A stretch of DNA of 64,000 nucleotides from Roseovarius sp. (GCF_027019125.1 NZ_JALUXE010000004.1:21785-85784); one strand, 5' to 3'; shown: positions 36,390-61,446, counted from the stretch's first letter. Numbers and translations: made by a program. Notes: generated by a model not told the origin, from the letters alone.

Positions 36390-36827
36390 ATGCTCACCCG
36401 TATTCTGCATTCCTTCTCCTCCCCGAAACCGGCCCCGCTGCCCGAGCCGGACGACAAATTGGCGCTGGCCGCCTTGATGGTGCGGGTGGCGAAATCCGAC
36501 CATCATTACGACCTTGCCGAGATCAAACGGATCGACCGCCTTTTGGCGCGGCTTTACGGGCTTGGCCCGGTCGAGGCGGCCAAGATGCGCGCCCTCTCGG
36601 AGCGGATCGAGCATGCCGCCCCTGAAACCGACCGCTTTGGCCATATCATCCGCGAGACCGTCAGCCTCGAGGCCCGCCTTGCCGCGCTCGAGGCTCTGTG
36701 GGAGGTGGTGTTGTCCGACGGCGCGAGCCAGCCAGAGGAATTGCACGTGATTGACGCCGCGCGCGAGGCAATGGGTCTGAGCCATGCCGATAGCGATGCC
36801 GCGCGCGCCTTGGCCGAGGCGCAGTAA
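36390..36827 (+). CDS. TerB family (DjlA N-terminal-like) protein
   Basis: LMVRVAKSD...E...LWEVVLSDG...E. Confidence 0.88.
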   Translation: MLTRILHSFSSPKPAPLPEPDDKLALAALMVRVAKSDHHYDLAEIKRIDRLLARLYGLGPVEAAKMRALSERIEHAAPETDRFGHIIRETVSLEARLAALEALWEVVLSDGASQPEELHVIDAAREAMGLSHADSDAARALAEAQ

Positions 36828-36869: not shown

Positions 36870-37310
36870 ATGTTTGCAGATTTCCTGAAGCGGCTGATCC
36901 AACCAGCCCCCGAGCCTCTGACCGGCGGTGATGCCCGTCTGGCGCTCTGTGCCCTCCTCGTCCGCGTCGCGCGCACCGATGGAGATTACGCTGCGGCCGA
37001 GATCATCCGCATCACGCGCATCATCTCAGCCCGTTACAACCTGTCTCAACCCGAGGCAGAGGCCCTGCGCCAACAGGCCGAAAATCTCGAGAGCGAGGCA
37101 CCCGACACTGTCCGCTTTACCCGCGCGATCAAGGATGCAGTACCACATGAGGACCGTCTCGGCGTGATCGAGGCGCTCTGGCAAGTGGCCTTGGCCGATG
37201 GGGTGCGAGAGGCGGATGAGGACGCGCTGTTGCGTTTGGTGGCCAGCCTTTTGGGCATCACCGATCAGGAAAGTGCCCGCGCCCGTCAGCGCATCATGGG
37301 TCAAACATGA
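36870..37310 (+). CDS. TerB family protein (tandem paralog)
   Basis: LLVRVARTDG, DTVRFTRAIK, LWQVALADG. Confidence 0.9.
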   Translation: MFADFLKRLIQPAPEPLTGGDARLALCALLVRVARTDGDYAAAEIIRITRIISARYNLSQPEAEALRQQAENLESEAPDTVRFTRAIKDAVPHEDRLGVIEALWQVALADGVREADEDALLRLVASLLGITDQESARARQRIMGQT

Positions 37311-38992: not shown

Positions 38993-39706
38993 ATGAAGAA
39001 ACTGCTACTCACCACCGCCGCACTGGCGCTCTCGGCTGGCTTTGCCATGGCCGATACCGTGCGACTTGGCACCGAAGGTGCCTACCCTCCGTATAACTTC
39101 ATCAACGACAAGGGCGAAGTCGACGGGTTCGAGCGCGAATTGGGCGATGAGCTATGCAAGCGCGCCGAACTGACCTGCGAATGGGTCACGAATGACTGGG
39201 ACAGCATCATCCCGAACCTCGTGTCCGGGAACTATGACGTGATCATCGCCGGCATGTCGATCACCGACGAACGGGATCAGGTGATTGATTTCACCCAGAA
39301 CTATACCCAGCCCGATCCCTCGGCCTATCTCGCCCCCTCCGCGGATGTCGATGTGAAATCCGGTGTGATCGCGGCTCAGTCCGGAACGATTCAGGCATCC
39401 TATGTGGCCAGCAGCGGTGCCACGCTGGTGGAATATGCGACCCCCGAGGAATCCATCGCAGCCGTGCGCAATGGCGAAGCCGATGCCGTTCTGGCCGACC
39501 GTGCCTTCCTTCTGCCCGTGGCCGAAGAGGATGCCGGGCTGGAACTCCTCGAAGAGCTGGTCATGATCGGGGGCGGCGTGGGTCTGGGCCTGCGCGAGAG
39601 CGACACCGAACTCAAGGCCAAGTTCGATGCCGCCATTCAGTCGATGAAGGACGATGGCAGCCTGAACGCCCTGATCGAGAAATGGGAAATCGGCCTGACC
39701 TTCTGA
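38993..39706 (+). CDS. Polar amino-acid ABC transporter substrate-binding protein
   Basis: Signal peptide; GTEGAYPPYN, WDSIIPNL, MSITDER. Confidence 0.95.
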   Translation: MKKLLLTTAALALSAGFAMADTVRLGTEGAYPPYNFINDKGEVDGFERELGDELCKRAELTCEWVTNDWDSIIPNLVSGNYDVIIAGMSITDERDQVIDFTQNYTQPDPSAYLAPSADVDVKSGVIAAQSGTIQASYVASSGATLVEYATPEESIAAVRNGEADAVLADRAFLLPVAEEDAGLELLEELVMIGGGVGLGLRESDTELKAKFDAAIQSMKDDGSLNALIEKWEIGLTF

Positions 39707-39718
39707 GGTTGGCCGACA

Positions 39719-39742
39719 GGCGGGGTCCAATGCGGCCCCGCC
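39719..39742 (+). terminator. GC-rich stem-loop after the binding-protein gene (partial terminator or mRNA stabiliser)
   Basis: GGCGGGGTC-caatgc-GGCCCCGCC. Confidence 0.45.
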
Positions 39743-39764
39743 CCCTCCAACAAGGCTCTTTGCG

Positions 39765-40646
39765 ATGTTTGCCTTTTGCTCCGATCCAGCCAGCCTTGAC
39801 GGTCTTGCGTGGATTTCCTGCTACCTGACCACGTCCAAACACCTGCAACTTTACTATGCGGTGGGCACGGTTCTGTTGCTGCTGGCGATCACTGCACCGG
39901 CTGCGCTTGCCTTTGGATTTGGTGGGGCAATGGCCGCGCGGGCGCATCTGGCCCCCCTGCGCTGGTTCGGCAAGTCCTATATCGCCGTCGTGCGCGGCGT
40001 GCCCGACATCGCGTTCTTTCTCTTTTTCGTCATCGCGCTGGATCAGGCGTTTGAATGGACGCGGCATCAGATCCTGTGCCCAGATTGGGACCAACCGATC
40101 CGTCAGGGCAATGACTTTGTGGTCTGTCAGGCCGCGAAACTCCCCCTCGGCACAGCCCCGCAATGGGTGCATGAAACCTACGGCTTTGCCCTTGCTGTGC
40201 TGACCTTTGCCATCGTCTTTGGGGCCTTTGCCGCGAATGTGCTCTTTGGGGCCATGCGCGCCGTGCCCCGTGCCCAGATGGAAACCGCCGAGGCCTATGG
40301 CATGTCCCGTCGTCAGGCCTTCTGGCGGATCATGGTGCCGCAGATGTGGGTTTACGCCCTGCCCGGTCTTGGCAATCTCTGGATGGTGCTGATCAAGGCC
40401 ACACCGCTGCTCTTCCTGCTCGGGGTCGAGGATATCGTCTATTGGGCGCGCGAACTCGGCGCCACGGCCAATCCGCGATTTACCGACTATCCGCATGGCG
40501 ACTGGCGGATGTGGTATTTTCTGGGGCTGATGGTGTTCTATCTCGGCTTCACCCGCGTGTCAGAGGTCATGCTGGAGCGCCTCATGCAGCGCCTTACATT
40601 CGGGCAGGCCACGACCGGCGGTGAAGCGCAAAGGAAAGCGGCATGA
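39765..40646 (+). CDS. Polar amino-acid ABC transporter permease (HisQ-like)
   Basis: RGVPD, AVPRAQMETAEAYG, KATPL. Confidence 0.93.
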   Translation: MFAFCSDPASLDGLAWISCYLTTSKHLQLYYAVGTVLLLLAITAPAALAFGFGGAMAARAHLAPLRWFGKSYIAVVRGVPDIAFFLFFVIALDQAFEWTRHQILCPDWDQPIRQGNDFVVCQAAKLPLGTAPQWVHETYGFALAVLTFAIVFGAFAANVLFGAMRAVPRAQMETAEAYGMSRRQAFWRIMVPQMWVYALPGLGNLWMVLIKATPLLFLLGVEDIVYWARELGATANPRFTDYPHGDWRMWYFLGLMVFYLGFTRVSEVMLERLMQRLTFGQATTGGEAQRKAA

Positions 40647-41630
40647 GCTGCATACCTTTGCGAACCACACTAAGCCATTTTGGATGCGCACCCTTCCAAC
40701 CATTCGGATATGTCTCTGATAAAATCATCCTCGTCTTGGGTGATGATGCCATCCGCTTGAACTACGCCTACGGCTGCCTTAAAAAGTCGCTCAATGCGCT
40801 TAATTGGCCAATTCGCTATTTCTGCAAGAGCCTCGTCCAATTCCGTTTGCGTTGGACGCGTTCGTCGCACCAAACGTCCGAGTTTCTCAAAGCCGTCCAG
40901 ACCGGGCAGAACATCCAGAACACCTTCATTCTTAAGGCATTCAGCTTCAGTTTCGGTAAATTGCATGATCCTATCAACCTCTTCAATGTGAAGCAGATCA
41001 TCCGCACGCGCAGCTGCCGAAAGCACGACAATCGCTGCTTTGAGTTCTCGCCGAAGCATTGTGTAAGGAGAACTAGAATAGCTGGATTTACCGACGCTAT
41101 CTTCTTTCAAACTTGTAAGTTCAACCTCGTAACCAGAATCCCCTGCGATCAGTTCACCAATGAGAAGCTGTGCGTCTTCAACGACGCCGTCATCATCAAT
41201 AACCCCTTCGATTCGATCCAACCTGAACGTTCTGTGAGCCCTTCGTTCATGGCAAATCGCACCGACATAGAATATTCCCCCGCGGTTCTCTACCCACCGC
41301 GTAGTTATTCGTCTTCGGCTGAAGTTATCTCCCGCGTCGCGGTAGTCGATGACAAGGAAAAGAGGCTCCAAGTTATAGCGGCGAGTTTGAGGAACAATTG
41401 GGTTATTTTCATGCTGGAGTTCGCGGCACTCGTGCTCAATGTCAATTCCGAGTTCGACGTCAACAAATCCACTTGGTGGAAGTTCAAAAACTACAGTAAC
41501 TGCTTCAGTTTCGCTCGGCGTCCGGCCTCTCAACCAAGAAAAAAATCTCATTCACTCGTTCCCCTTAATCAAAGTAAGCGCATGGAATTTAAGCTGCACA
41601 TCTGTCAACTGAGGTGTCAAGCATGAGCTG
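40641..41630. mobile_element. AT-richer single-gene cassette bounded by a 10-bp direct repeat, inserted between two permease genes
   Basis: GCATGAGCTG at 40641-40650 and 41621-41630; hand counts of three 60-nt lines give 43-55% GC vs 60% on one flanking line; no transposase or terminal inverted repeats. Confidence 0.85.
40670..41551 (-). CDS. WYL domain + TerB-like domain fusion protein, no HTH
   Basis: WYL: IDYRDAGDNFSRRRI...YVGAICHERRAHRTFRLDRI; TerB-like: LSAAARADD...EE...AAVGVVQADG...E; SD-like AAGGGGA upstream. Confidence 0.85.
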   Translation of the reverse strand: MRFFSWLRGRTPSETEAVTVVFELPPSGFVDVELGIDIEHECRELQHENNPIVPQTRRYNLEPLFLVIDYRDAGDNFSRRRITTRWVENRGGIFYVGAICHERRAHRTFRLDRIEGVIDDDGVVEDAQLLIGELIAGDSGYEVELTSLKEDSVGKSSYSSSPYTMLRRELKAAIVVLSAAARADDLLHIEEVDRIMQFTETEAECLKNEGVLDVLPGLDGFEKLGRLVRRTRPTQTELDEALAEIANWPIKRIERLFKAAVGVVQADGIITQDEDDFIRDISEWLEGCASKMA

Positions 41631-42429
41631 TCTGGAGACCATTCAGGCCTATGGGCTGCGCGCCATCGGCATCGGCGAGCGCCTCTTGCCGCAAAGCGAT
41701 TTCACCCTCTGCCAGCAGGTCACGCTGATCGGCTCCGGCCTGATCTGGAATATCTATTTCGGCTTGTTCGCCCTCGTCAGCGGCTTCATCCTCGCGACTG
41801 CCGTGGCACTTGGCAAAGGCTCACGCAACCGCGTGATCCGCAAACTGTCCGAGTGGTTCATCTTTGTCTTTCGCGGCTCGCCGCTCTTCATCCAGTTTTT
41901 CTTTGCCTATTTCTTCTTTCTTTCTCTCAAATCGGTCTCGCCCTTCTTTGATATCCTGACCTCGGCCTGGCTTGGCGCGTTGATCGTGCTTTTCCTCAAC
42001 ACGGCCGCCTATTCCGGCGAGATCTTCTATGGCGCGCTGCGGTCCATTCCCAAAGGCGATGTCGAGGCCGCAGATGCCTATGGGTTTTCCGGTTGGCCCC
42101 GCTTTCGCCGGATCATCTGGCCCACCATGCTGCGGCTCGCATGGCCTGCCTATACCAATGAGGCGATCTTTCTCTTTCATGCCACGACGCTGGTCTTTTT
42201 CTCGGGCTTTCCGGTCTGGCAACAGCGCGGCGATGCGCTCTACTATGCCAAGTATTTCGCCGACAAGACGTTTAACCCCTTCGTACCCTACCCGATCCTT
42301 GCGGGCTATTTCATCCTGCTCACGCTGGTGGTGATCGGCGTCTTTGGCCTGATCAATCGTCGGCTCAACCGTCACCTGCCGCAGGAATATCGCCGCAAGC
42401 TTAGCCTGCGGGTGAACCTGATCCGCTGA
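41623..42429 (+). CDS. Polar amino-acid ABC transporter permease (HisM-like)
   Basis: FRGSPLFIQ, NTAAYSGEI, EAADAYG. Confidence 0.93.
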   Translation: MSCLETIQAYGLRAIGIGERLLPQSDFTLCQQVTLIGSGLIWNIYFGLFALVSGFILATAVALGKGSRNRVIRKLSEWFIFVFRGSPLFIQFFFAYFFFLSLKSVSPFFDILTSAWLGALIVLFLNTAAYSGEIFYGALRSIPKGDVEAADAYGFSGWPRFRRIIWPTMLRLAWPAYTNEAIFLFHATTLVFFSGFPVWQQRGDALYYAKYFADKTFNPFVPYPILAGYFILLTLVVIGVFGLINRRLNRHLPQEYRRKLSLRVNLIR

Positions 42430-58980: not shown

Positions 58981-59325
58981 CAAATCTTTATTTTCATATT
59001 GTTTAACAACAAGTTACCATACTTTAAGAGATTGTCTTCCCACACTTTTTCCCACGCTTATATTTGAGTGGTAGGGGCTTTTCCGAGCATCGGACTTTTA
59101 AGCTTTGAACTGACATTGTGAGAATGTTGCCATCCACGCCGGTCCTCAAACAAAGCTGTCAGACTTTCACCCCGCCCCCCCTTTCAATAGCATTGCCTAC
59201 GGTGGAGCACAAAGAGCAGGACTTAACCTTCCGGCCATTCTCTCGAATTAAAATTCTTGGATTGCTCAAGTCGGTGCTCTGACGCACGTGGAAATAGCGG
59301 TCGAGGAGCCGCGCACTCCTATAAC

Positions 59326-60303
59326 TCAATCAGATTTGATATCTGCCGTTTTCGATTGATTGTAGCCGTAGGCTGAATCAAGATTTTCAGTAACGATCTC
59401 ATCGATGACTTTTATCTGCGCATCTTCAAAGTAGTCTCGATATCCACCGACTTTGGCACGCCGAACCTTGTAGCTATCTGGAATACTCTTATCGCCCGGG
59501 TTTAAACGCGCACCGCTAGTTCGAAAACTCTGCTCGGCCTCTTTCTTCTTCATGTTTTCGTACGAGGCGTAATCGACCGCCTCTGTTATCTGCGCTGCAC
59601 TGGCGGGAATTTCTAGGAACCGAGCGACCCGGGCTAACTCATTGACCGGGTCGGCCCGCATGTTCTCGTATTTGACAATTTCATGCGCGCGGGTGTTTAC
59701 CAATTCCTCTGCCCAGCTATTCATGAAGTTAATGATCCTGCGTAGCCCGCTTCTGTCATCTTGCACAAACTCGAACATCGAAAGATCGCTTCCGTGAGGT
59801 GGATAAAAGCTAAGCTGCTTCTTCCATGGTTGTGTGCGAAAGCGCCAATGAAAAAAACTTGAGACCACAACATCGCGAGGGTCCCGCACCATCAAAAGGA
59901 CCTTCTTGTCGTAGAAATCGAGCTTCGTCGATGTATTGCCAGAATAATCCCGGATAAACTCGTCATGTGTGAAAAGCAGACGTGGAATGCGACGGTCTAT
60001 GTAATGGAAATTGTCGAATCCGATCACAGCATCTTTTGGCAGATCATATACCTGTTGATAGAGCCGCGAGATCATTACTCTTAGCCAGGTGCGTCCGCTT
60101 TTTGCGTAAGAAACAATGACCGCATCAGCGCTTTGAAGCTGATCATACTGCTCGCGTCCTCTCAATTGCCGCTCGGCACCAAGACGTTGTTCATGATTTG
60201 CTCTCGTCAGGCTGAGATGCAATCTAACAATGCTGCGTCGCGCTCTTCTTCGGGCTTGATGAATGAGCTGGGGGAGCGCTGCACGCATGGTTCTTGTGCT
60301 CAT
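59326..60303 (-). CDS. PAPS-dependent sulfotransferase (Sulfotransfer_1-like)
   Basis: 5'-PSB SYAKSGRTWL, 3'-PB VRDPRDVVVS, KYENM, KVRRAKVGGY. Confidence 0.9.
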   Translation of the reverse strand: MSTRTMRAALPQLIHQARRRARRSIVRLHLSLTRANHEQRLGAERQLRGREQYDQLQSADAVIVSYAKSGRTWLRVMISRLYQQVYDLPKDAVIGFDNFHYIDRRIPRLLFTHDEFIRDYSGNTSTKLDFYDKKVLLMVRDPRDVVVSSFFHWRFRTQPWKKQLSFYPPHGSDLSMFEFVQDDRSGLRRIINFMNSWAEELVNTRAHEIVKYENMRADPVNELARVARFLEIPASAAQITEAVDYASYENMKKKEAEQSFRTSGARLNPGDKSIPDSYKVRRAKVGGYRDYFEDAQIKVIDEIVTENLDSAYGYNQSKTADIKSD

Positions 60304-60516
60304 TGAGAATTCATCCGATCATCGAATACGAAATGCGCGCTTTCTTGAGGCCCGGGTCGTATGGGGCGGCATTTCGTGCTAATCAACCCACCCTATGATT
60401 TCTCTGACTCCGGTCTGTATGTCCATGCTAATTTCACCGAACTTAGTGCTTTTCTTATTGCATACCGTTGGCTTATATCTAGCCGCTCAACTAACACCAC
60501 TACGATAGCGGAAACC

Positions 60517-61446
60517 ATGACTATAAAATTTAGAGATATTGACGAGACAACGTTAGCTCTTTCTCCTGATACAGTAATTTCGTCGTTCTCCCCGTTCGTC
60601 TGTAATGATCAAAAATCTGAAGGTCGTATCCGCCGGATCATCAAGATTTGGTTCAAGACTGCGAAGCGGGTCGTGAGGCGCCTTTTCGGTAGAAAAAGTT
60701 CATCTAGCACTCGCAGCAAGGACGTGATCAAGGACGAGTACGAGGTCACTTGGTCGCGTGGTTATGCGGCGTATGATCTAGATGTAGGGTGCCGCAAGCC
60801 CGAACCTTGGCTTGTGCGAGGTAAAGGTATAATGGCTGACCGATCTGGCGTGCCGAGATGGCGCAACTTGATCCTCAACGCGGCTATAAAATCAATCAAG
60901 CCGCGTCGCGTGCTTGAAGTTGGGTGCGGTAATGGAATAAACCTCATCCTCCTCGCAAATCAGTTCCCCGATATTTCCTTCACCGGGCTTGAGTTGACAG
61001 ACGCAGGAAATCGTGTTGCACGTGATTTACAGAACGTTGCTACGTTTCCTTCCGCTCTCGCTGCATATCCTTTTATCCCCGCGACTGATCCCGAGGCGTT
61101 CCGCAGAATCAACTTTGTGCGTGGTGATGCGACCGCCATGCCGTTTGATGATGGCGAATTCGATTTGGTATTTACGGTGCTATCAATCGAACAGATGGAG
61201 CGCGTACGCGATAAAGCGCTGGCCGAAATCGGGCGCGTCAGCGGTGGCCATGTTCTGAATATGGAGCCATTCGCAGAGGCCAATTCTTCGCTGCTGCGTC
61301 GCGCTCACGTATTTGGACGTGACTATTTTCGCGGGAAGATAGATGATCTGAGCCAATACGGATTAGAACCCATCTGGGCCACGATGGATTTTCCTCAGGA
61401 GGTTCAGCTAGGAGCAGCACTCGTGTTGAGCCACAAGAGCATTTGA
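60517..61446 (+). CDS. Class I SAM-dependent methyltransferase
   Basis: VLEVGCGNG, GLE, GDATAMPFDDGEFDLVFT; start uncertain (60361 or 60517). Confidence 0.88.
   Translation: MTIKFRDIDETTLALSPDTVISSFSPFVCNDQKSEGRIRRIIKIWFKTAKRVVRRLFGRKSSSSTRSKDVIKDEYEVTWSRGYAAYDLDVGCRKPEPWLVRGKGIMADRSGVPRWRNLILNAAIKSIKPRRVLEVGCGNGINLILLANQFPDISFTGLELTDAGNRVARDLQNVATFPSALAAYPFIPATDPEAFRRINFVRGDATAMPFDDGEFDLVFTVLSIEQMERVRDKALAEIGRVSGGHVLNMEPFAEANSSLLRRAHVFGRDYFRGKIDDLSQYGLEPIWATMDFPQEVQLGAALVLSHKSI

Follow-up and report, generated by a model that had tools for sequence, protein, structure and literature searches.

A WYL–TerB gene inserted antisense at the ATGA junction of a Roseovarius transporter operon faces a stop-free frame coupled at both ends

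Introduction

How can a foreign gene lie on the wrong strand of a tightly coupled operon and leave that operon unharmed? The question is raised by a 64,000-nt stretch of DNA from Roseovarius sp., here called the window (all positions are counted along it), in which a single-gene cassette is inserted between the two permease genes of an ATP-binding cassette (ABC) transporter operon. The operon is of the polar-amino-acid type, with the order ATPase, SBP_bac_3, permease 1 and permease 2. The cassette gene encodes a protein with WYL and TerB domains and runs against the operon; opposite to it, on the operon strand, an open reading frame (ORF), referred to below as the bridge, extends from the stop of permease 1 to the start of permease 2. 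The locus displays an insertion polymorphism, and among the relatives of the cassette we observed that this site is occupied repeatedly, that stops are avoided family-wide and that the ends are coupled. We propose, as the probable though by no means certain explanation, that a phage-derived accessory gene is nested antisense in the operon and is harmless because the opposite strand of the cassette forms a selected, translated, stop-free bridge, which would relay translational coupling and prevent polarity.

The cassette is an insertion at a conserved empty site

A perfect 10-bp direct repeat, GCATGAGCTG, flanks the cassette. As a preliminary description of this DNA had stated, the repeat has exactly two copies, which lie 980 bp apart in the 64-kb window (40641–40650 and 41621–41630); in a shuffle control, two or more matches to the 10-mer were found anywhere in 5 of 100 shuffles. 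The left copy contains the stop of permease 1 and the start codon of the bridge, the right copy the stop of the bridge and the start of permease 2. Between them lie 970 bp of inserted DNA (40651–41620) with a guanine-plus-cytosine (GC) content of 0.49 (0.486 versus 0.616 and 0.576 in the flanks), which is present in no sampled congener.

The insert is located in the four-base ATGA stop/start overlap that joins the two permease genes. Removal of the insert together with one repeat copy had been predicted to restore a normal overlap, and this joined sequence exists: the nearest relatives read AAAGCGGCATGAGCTGTCT, precisely the predicted empty site. The empty junction reads AAAGCGGCATGAGCTGTCTCGAG in genome G044 and aaagcggcATGAgctgtcttgag in R. 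mucosus DSM 17069. A single ATGA permease overlap was found in nearly all of 30 same-genus genomes, R. mucosus among them, and a plain ATGA overlap at 56 of 80 Roseobacter-group loci. The species closest to the window, R. mucosus DSM 17069 and the metagenome-assembled genome TamC05-29, are both empty-site relatives. The empty site is conserved throughout the genus, and relative to it the locus is an insertion. Both host genes are intact, as described earlier. Permease 1 (39765–40646, plus strand; BPD_transp_1, Pfam 6.4e-16) has 293 aa, of which residues 1–293 align to relatives, and its TGA stop lies within the ATGA at 40643–40646. Permease 2 (41623–42429, plus strand; BPD_transp_1, Pfam 1.6e-19) is full length with 268 aa and 98% identical to that of R. 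mucosus.

A second, independent assembly (GCA_052826165.1, L034) is 99.89% identical over 10.9 kb and contains the same insert. The cassette is therefore not an assembly artefact or part of a chimeric contig, an explanation for which nothing but the low GC content of the insert speaks and whose probability we consider negligible; many metagenomes, as well as the genome of an isolate from another genus, have the same architecture.

The insert is present in one copy in the genome. Its Pfam matches are limited to the minus-strand WYL and TerB domains; it contains no transposase, integrase or recombinase, and an inverted-repeat search detected no terminal inverted repeats pairing both ends. An imperfect palindrome at the cassette 3′ end was likewise not found, apart from a hairpin between host and cassette sequence described below. 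The 10-bp repeat resembles a target-site duplication; however, an insert cannot spare both overlapping genes unless the ATGA, at the least, is duplicated. The identical 10-bp core at both insert ends, together with the genus-wide conserved empty site, also resembles an att-type arrangement. Divergence from R. mucosus is uniform at about 9% up to the junction, which does not indicate an import tract in the flanks and is compatible with recombination with an unsampled donor.

Several identities were considered for the insert and rejected. A transposon or miniature inverted-repeat transposable element is ruled out by the lack of inverted repeats and transposase, the single copy and the restriction of close homologues to this one junction. 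Against an integron cassette, GTTRRRY matches are only internal and at chance frequency, and there is no attC core at the boundaries. The sole Rfam match was a sub-threshold chance match, and the cassette protein (P0001) had no match in the plasmid and phage collections, which speaks against an RNA element and against an origin from a plasmid or a sequenced phage. The cassette of the window is not located in a prophage either, its flanks being a core ABC operon that is syntenic across the genus. The preliminary description had proposed a minimal, non-autonomous mobile cassette that entered from a circle through microhomology or was integrated by a recombinase acting in trans. Its picture of a clean one-gene insertion that lacks a recombinase and spares the operon is borne out; for mobility, no second copy, excised form or conserved end sequence was found.

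Stop codons are avoided opposite the cassette gene

The bridge (40643–41626, plus strand) is 327 codons long. It shares an ATGA with each neighbour, its ATG overlapping the stop of permease 1 and its TGA the start of permease 2; the ATG, located in the left repeat, is still preceded by the native AGGAAAG context of permease 2. The bridge runs codon for codon antisense to the cassette gene (40670–41551, minus strand, 293 aa), and a stop in the bridge corresponds to a TTA, CTA or TCA codon in that gene. Not one of these codons occurs in the cassette gene, where about 13 are expected (P approximately 1.7e-8).

The GC content at third codon positions (GC3) of the cassette gene is 0.44, and A-ending codons make up 29% in four-fold and 67% in two-fold families. 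ORFs of the same genome with GC3 below 0.5 carry about 11 TTA, CTA or TCA codons per 293, and none of the 16 is free of them; in the GC3 range of 0.5–0.6, 1 of 140 ORFs lacks them. Genome-wide, no other stretch open on both strands in codon-aligned register has a GC content as low as that of the cassette. Other double-open low-GC stretches of the genome were examined as bridges and turned out to be ordinary, unbridged genes (a response regulator, DnaA).

Diverged homologues occupy the same junction

Homologues with 39–60% amino acid identity were found between the orthologous permease genes, in the same backward orientation, in at least seven other Roseobacter lineages. The occupied junctions are those of Lutimaribacter saemankumensis DSM 28010 (L048), a TARA scaffold likewise of Lutimaribacter (L035), a Nioella-type contig (L133) and the metagenomic lineages L039, L050, L147, L047 and L049. 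At all nine junction loci the bridge frame is open from xTGA to xTGA, with 326–362 codons. The corresponding distances are 980, 983, 983, 974, 1082, 974, 1052, 1052 and 1052 nt, all of them 2 mod 3, and the frame has been kept open despite saturated synonymous divergence and lengths between 974 and 1082 nt. TTA, CTA and TCA are absent from every junction cassette, compared with 4–13 expected (P of zero between 1.7e-8 and 0.008 per gene). The distance between the start of the cassette gene and the bridge stop is 72 nt in eight of eight junction cassettes.

The preliminary description had suggested a search for homologues at other sites and for other cargo at this one. Close homologues were all found at the same junction, and unrelated short inserts were found there as well. 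These have 5–184 nt, consist mostly of a GC-rich repeat and are present at approximately 16 of the 80 Roseobacter-group loci. Eleven of the 14 longer ones (16–184 nt, in other genera) contain a mini-ORF that leads from the xTGA of permease 1 to the ATGA of permease 2, with gap lengths of 1 mod 3; in the remaining ones the mini-ORF ends within one or two bases of the permease 2 start. That unrelated short inserts are bridged, too, points to selection on coupling itself.

The GC-rich repeat family (GGGGGCGCTGCCCCC...CCCCCGAGGTATTT..GGCCAGATGAAG) has at least 36 copies in the genome of the window (e.g. C2:129760 and C27:226551). In other Roseobacter genera the same repeat lies at the ATGA permease junction (L062, L065, L081, L106, L110, L118 and L132), and there a short coupled ORF runs through it. 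Inserts of 5–35 nt with repeated GCATGA(G), such as GGCATGAacatgaggtacatgGCATGAGC, occur at the junctions of L024 (G014), L029 (G041), L072 (Roseovarius albus) and L092; they may have arisen as small duplications or been left behind by earlier inserts. The 1052–1082-nt cassettes (L050, 3877–4001; L147; L049) have about 100 nt extra between the stops of permease 1 and the WYL gene. This extra stretch includes a CCCGGG-type hairpin resembling the small stand-alone insert of L067, which argues that the junction has been hit more than once.

Prophage-type relatives are nested in the same way

A second subfamily, with an identity of about 33%, was found in IMG/VR viral contigs and in prophage-like regions of Roseobacters, with neighbours that include a Peptidase_S24 repressor, GapR, replication genes and HNH. 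These phage-type copies, too, are oriented against the chain of small genes around them. No antisense stop was present in any of the 16 phage-type loci examined (viral, prophage or short-contig; the phage-type context of L145 rests on a 1.2-kb contig). Their bridge ORFs overlap by 4 nt with the opposite-strand gene on either side, for example in L153, L165, L160, L170 and L158. Altogether, 24 of 24 nested relatives have no antisense stop, and un-nested relatives have nine (L003, beside gyrB), five (L052) or one (L144 and L140). L140 belongs to the junction clade, yet is co-directional upstream of prfA.

A search for an empty site in phages yielded only distant relatives (37–38%) of the upstream gene, with an ATGA junction to a different downstream gene. 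This is suggestive and does not represent a true empty site. In the phage-type locus L151 (2196–3203), both bridge ends read GCGGCATGA, a 9-bp repeat with the same core as the ABC permease junction (AAAGCGGCATGAG).

A translated bridge and its alternatives

In the proposed mechanism, ribosomes that end permease 1 would re-initiate at the duplicated ATG, which offers the native ribosome-binding context of permease 2. They would then read 327 codons antisense through the cassette and terminate where the bridge TGA and the permease 2 ATG overlap, and in this way the start/stop coupling would be relayed. The insert region has a negative GC skew and gives a C-rich operon RNA; with a translated bridge, this 1 kb of foreign operon mRNA would never be untranslated and would be shielded from Rho-dependent polarity. 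The cassette gene itself, on the other strand, would be read independently, beginning at its own start. We infer from the comparison of sequences that the bridge is translated and that translation is what is selected.

How the cassette came to the junction is a separate matter. We favour integration by recombination at the short junction core, with functions supplied in trans, although microhomology may have mediated it instead; an old insertion that was inherited or exchanged is nearly as likely. In its fullest form, the latter explanation holds that one ancient insertion took place in an early Roseobacter and diverged in place, and that its patchy distribution arose by replacement of occupied with empty junctions (and sometimes the reverse) through homologous recombination in the flanks, for example by gene transfer agents. 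We give it serious weight, somewhat short of an even chance. It agrees with the cassette tree, in which the eight junction cassettes form one clade (support 100/98), and the constant 72-nt leader fits common descent. The same explanation draws on observations that weigh against our interpretation: cassette and permease identities co-vary (96/99, 59/81, 51–54/78–80 and 40–46/70–77%), every sampled cassette pair is more diverged than its flanks and gives no sign of recent movement, and the cassette ends differ between lineages, neither a recombinase nor a recombination site having been found. The junction hairpin, moreover, could in part hold the perfect 10-bp repeat, which then need not be young. 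Two further points count against us with respect to stop avoidance, namely that the null based on A-ending codons overestimates expected counts at high GC3, and that L139, L141, L142 and L143, labelled free with a context only loosely checked, have no antisense stops (the tree groups them with the phage type). Against a single ancient insertion, occupied loci are scattered on the permease 2 tree (five changes), where the nearest neighbours of each are empty, and fewer than 1% of the sampled genera have an occupied junction, so that losses exact to the base would have had to occur dozens of times. The flanking repeat also varies in extent between lineages: it reads GCATGAGCTG in the window (spanning −2 to +8), GG[A/C]AAGCGGCATGA in L049 (−10 to +4), CGGCATGAG in L133 (−4 to +5) and GCATGA in L035. 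Four unconstrained bases of the left copy are all intact in the window, compared with about one of four elsewhere, and there is mild incongruence between cassette and host trees, the L035 cassette grouping with that of the window and not with L039.

Two other explanations concern the open frame. If the plus-strand ORF were a functional protein gene, the locus would be a true antiparallel overlapping pair selected for its product. The start with its native Shine–Dalgarno context and the open frame kept in all relatives would fit this, and functional antiparallel overlapping genes have been reported in phage immunity regions (PMC9936078). We nevertheless regard it as improbable: the bridge product has no Pfam or PHROG match, bridge lengths vary between 326 and 362 codons, some of the sequence being unrelated filler (GC-rich hairpin repeats, for example), and the bridging of unrelated short inserts speaks for selection on openness, not on sequence. 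Far less credible still is an open antisense frame that arose by chance or as a by-product of codon usage, with the insert tolerated because the duplication left neither gene damaged. In GC-rich genomes the codon-aligned antisense frame is indeed the one with the fewest stops, and long antisense ORFs are common nearby, for example at 39612–40496 on the minus strand. However, the cassette gene freely uses A-ending codons at its low GC3 and is still devoid of codons that genome-matched genes contain; nested relatives consistently lack antisense stops, whereas un-nested ones carry 1–9; the non-coding cassette ends are open as well, and all lengths keep the phase.

A broader proposal goes beyond the translated bridge, and we put it forward only tentatively, as rather unlikely in its entirety. 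Under it, the WYL–TerB family would consist of operon-compatible mobile genes, each an ATGA-to-ATGA unit of 2 mod 3 with a stop-free reverse frame, insertable backwards into any ATGA-type overlap by recombination at the overlap. Such units would have resided in phage early operons first, and one lineage would then have entered a host transporter operon.

The cassette protein, junction sequences and neighbouring DNA

The cassette protein has a WYL domain at residues 66–117 (PF13280; 34.4 bits, cut-off 21.8) and a TerB domain at residues 172–285 (28.4 bits, cut-off 24.4) and is matched by the WYL models of PADLOC. In PHROGs it matches an unannotated family only. An AF2 model has a mean predicted local distance difference test score (pLDDT) of 74, and Foldseek searches with this model returned the WYL domains of PafBC, CapW, BrxR and DriD. 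The WYL fold and sequence signature are common to these sensors and the cassette protein. The sensors, however, have an N-terminal winged-helix DNA-binding domain, whereas in the cassette protein Pfam detected no N-terminal winged-helix or helix-turn-helix domain, residues 1–56 of the model form two short low-confidence helices, and the C-terminal partner is a TerB-like helical domain. A role as a sensor or in stress is a guess from the domains. Two small TerB-domain genes are located in the window at about 36390–36827 and 36870–37310 (plus strand), just upstream of a phosphonate-binding-protein gene and the ABC operon, and are kept at the same place in L035.

The cassette gene has a 5′ leader of 69 nt (41552–41620, minus strand), which presumably contains its promoter. 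In agreement with the preliminary description, TGTCAA occurs on the plus strand at 41603–41608 and 41615–41620, equivalent to TTGACA twice on the cassette-gene strand; no canonical sigma-70 promoter with a −35/−10 pair was called for the gene. The right end of the cassette also supplies the GAGGTG described earlier (41611–41616, plus strand), 6 nt before the permease 2 ATG at 41623, which may act as a Shine–Dalgarno-like sequence.

A hairpin spans the left junction (40627–40662, inverted repeat I3: CGCAAAGGAAAGCGGC / ATGA / GCTGCATACCTTTGCG), with the ATGA in the loop and one arm formed by host and the other by cassette sequence. It folds with −27.9 kcal/mol (z −4.6 on the plus and −3.5 on the minus strand) and, on the latter strand, is terminator-like for the cassette gene. 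Similar pairings of host and cassette sequence across the junction are present in L147 and L049. The hairpin could be a selected feature or a footprint of DNA joining.

Other low-GC DNA was noted as well. At about 59325–61446 the window contains two adjacent ORFs of 325 aa (minus strand) and 361 aa (plus strand) with a GC content of approximately 0.49–0.50, probably another foreign island. Downstream of gyrB, two Roseovarius genomes carry a low-GC single gene. In G010 (L003) this is a distant WYL–TerB relative; in the genome of the window it is a different 211-aa low-GC ORF (C8:127169–127805). The stretch after gyrB may be another insertion hotspot.

Comparison with known systems and implications

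The closest parallel is eta of the phage-plasmid P4, which is coupled to alpA. According to the published account of the nested eta and kil genes (PMC10111431, section 20), its translation prevents termination, and the operon thereby reads through a region with opposing or regulatory functions. The likeness to the bridge lies in operon read-through enabled by translation of an ORF. The eta ORF, however, belongs to a mobile element, where it spans an immunity RNA region and in part (Kil) encodes a real protein, whereas the bridge of the window spans a whole antisense protein gene, is located in a chromosomal housekeeping ABC-transporter operon and ends in a second ATGA coupling. In Pseudomonas phage Fc02, gene 10 of the lytic operon lies over olg1, antisense to an accessory gene expressed from the repressor side (PMC9936078), and the prophage-borne relatives of the cassette look similar to this lysis–lysogeny overlap. 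Both products are reported to be active in Fc02; in the window, by contrast, the opposite-strand frame has no recognizable product, and one lineage has moved from phage to host operon.

Ambigrammatic narnaviruses share with the cassette a stop-free reverse frame. Theirs is full length, codon-aligned and maintained by selection, and translation itself, not the product, is thought to matter (PMC8316113); unlike the cassette, these eukaryotic RNA viruses have no operon, coupling relay or insertion. Integron cassettes resemble that of the window in being about 1 kb long with one ORF and no recombinase of their own, and in using one specific site. The cassette of the window differs from them in that it lacks attC and a GTTRRRY boundary core, is opposite to the host transcript with its own expression signals, and targets a start/stop overlap rather than attI. 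Statistically supported stop avoidance opposite many genes has been reported in a survey that made no link to a coupling relay (bioRxiv 10.1101/724807); here, by contrast, coupling is present at both ends, and the selection is explained by the context. The locus combines known kinds, anti-polarity ORFs like P4 eta and antiparallel overlapping genes. What is new is the occurrence in a core chromosomal operon.

The locus offers a concrete case in which a foreign gene is accommodated on the wrong strand of a tightly coupled operon without breaking it. It points to strong selection on a 1-kb frame that annotation pipelines would discard and whose product is probably unimportant, and it links a chromosomal bridge to a gene family that does likewise inside prophage early operons. 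Bench work is feasible, since the cultured isolate Lutimaribacter saemankumensis DSM 28010 has the same arrangement. ATGA junctions are marked as tolerated, and possibly targeted, insertion points. If WYL–TerB genes are indeed operon-compatible mobile genes, start/stop overlaps would be integration sites for accessory genes, and translated bridges would be a general route by which antisense cargo avoids polarity.

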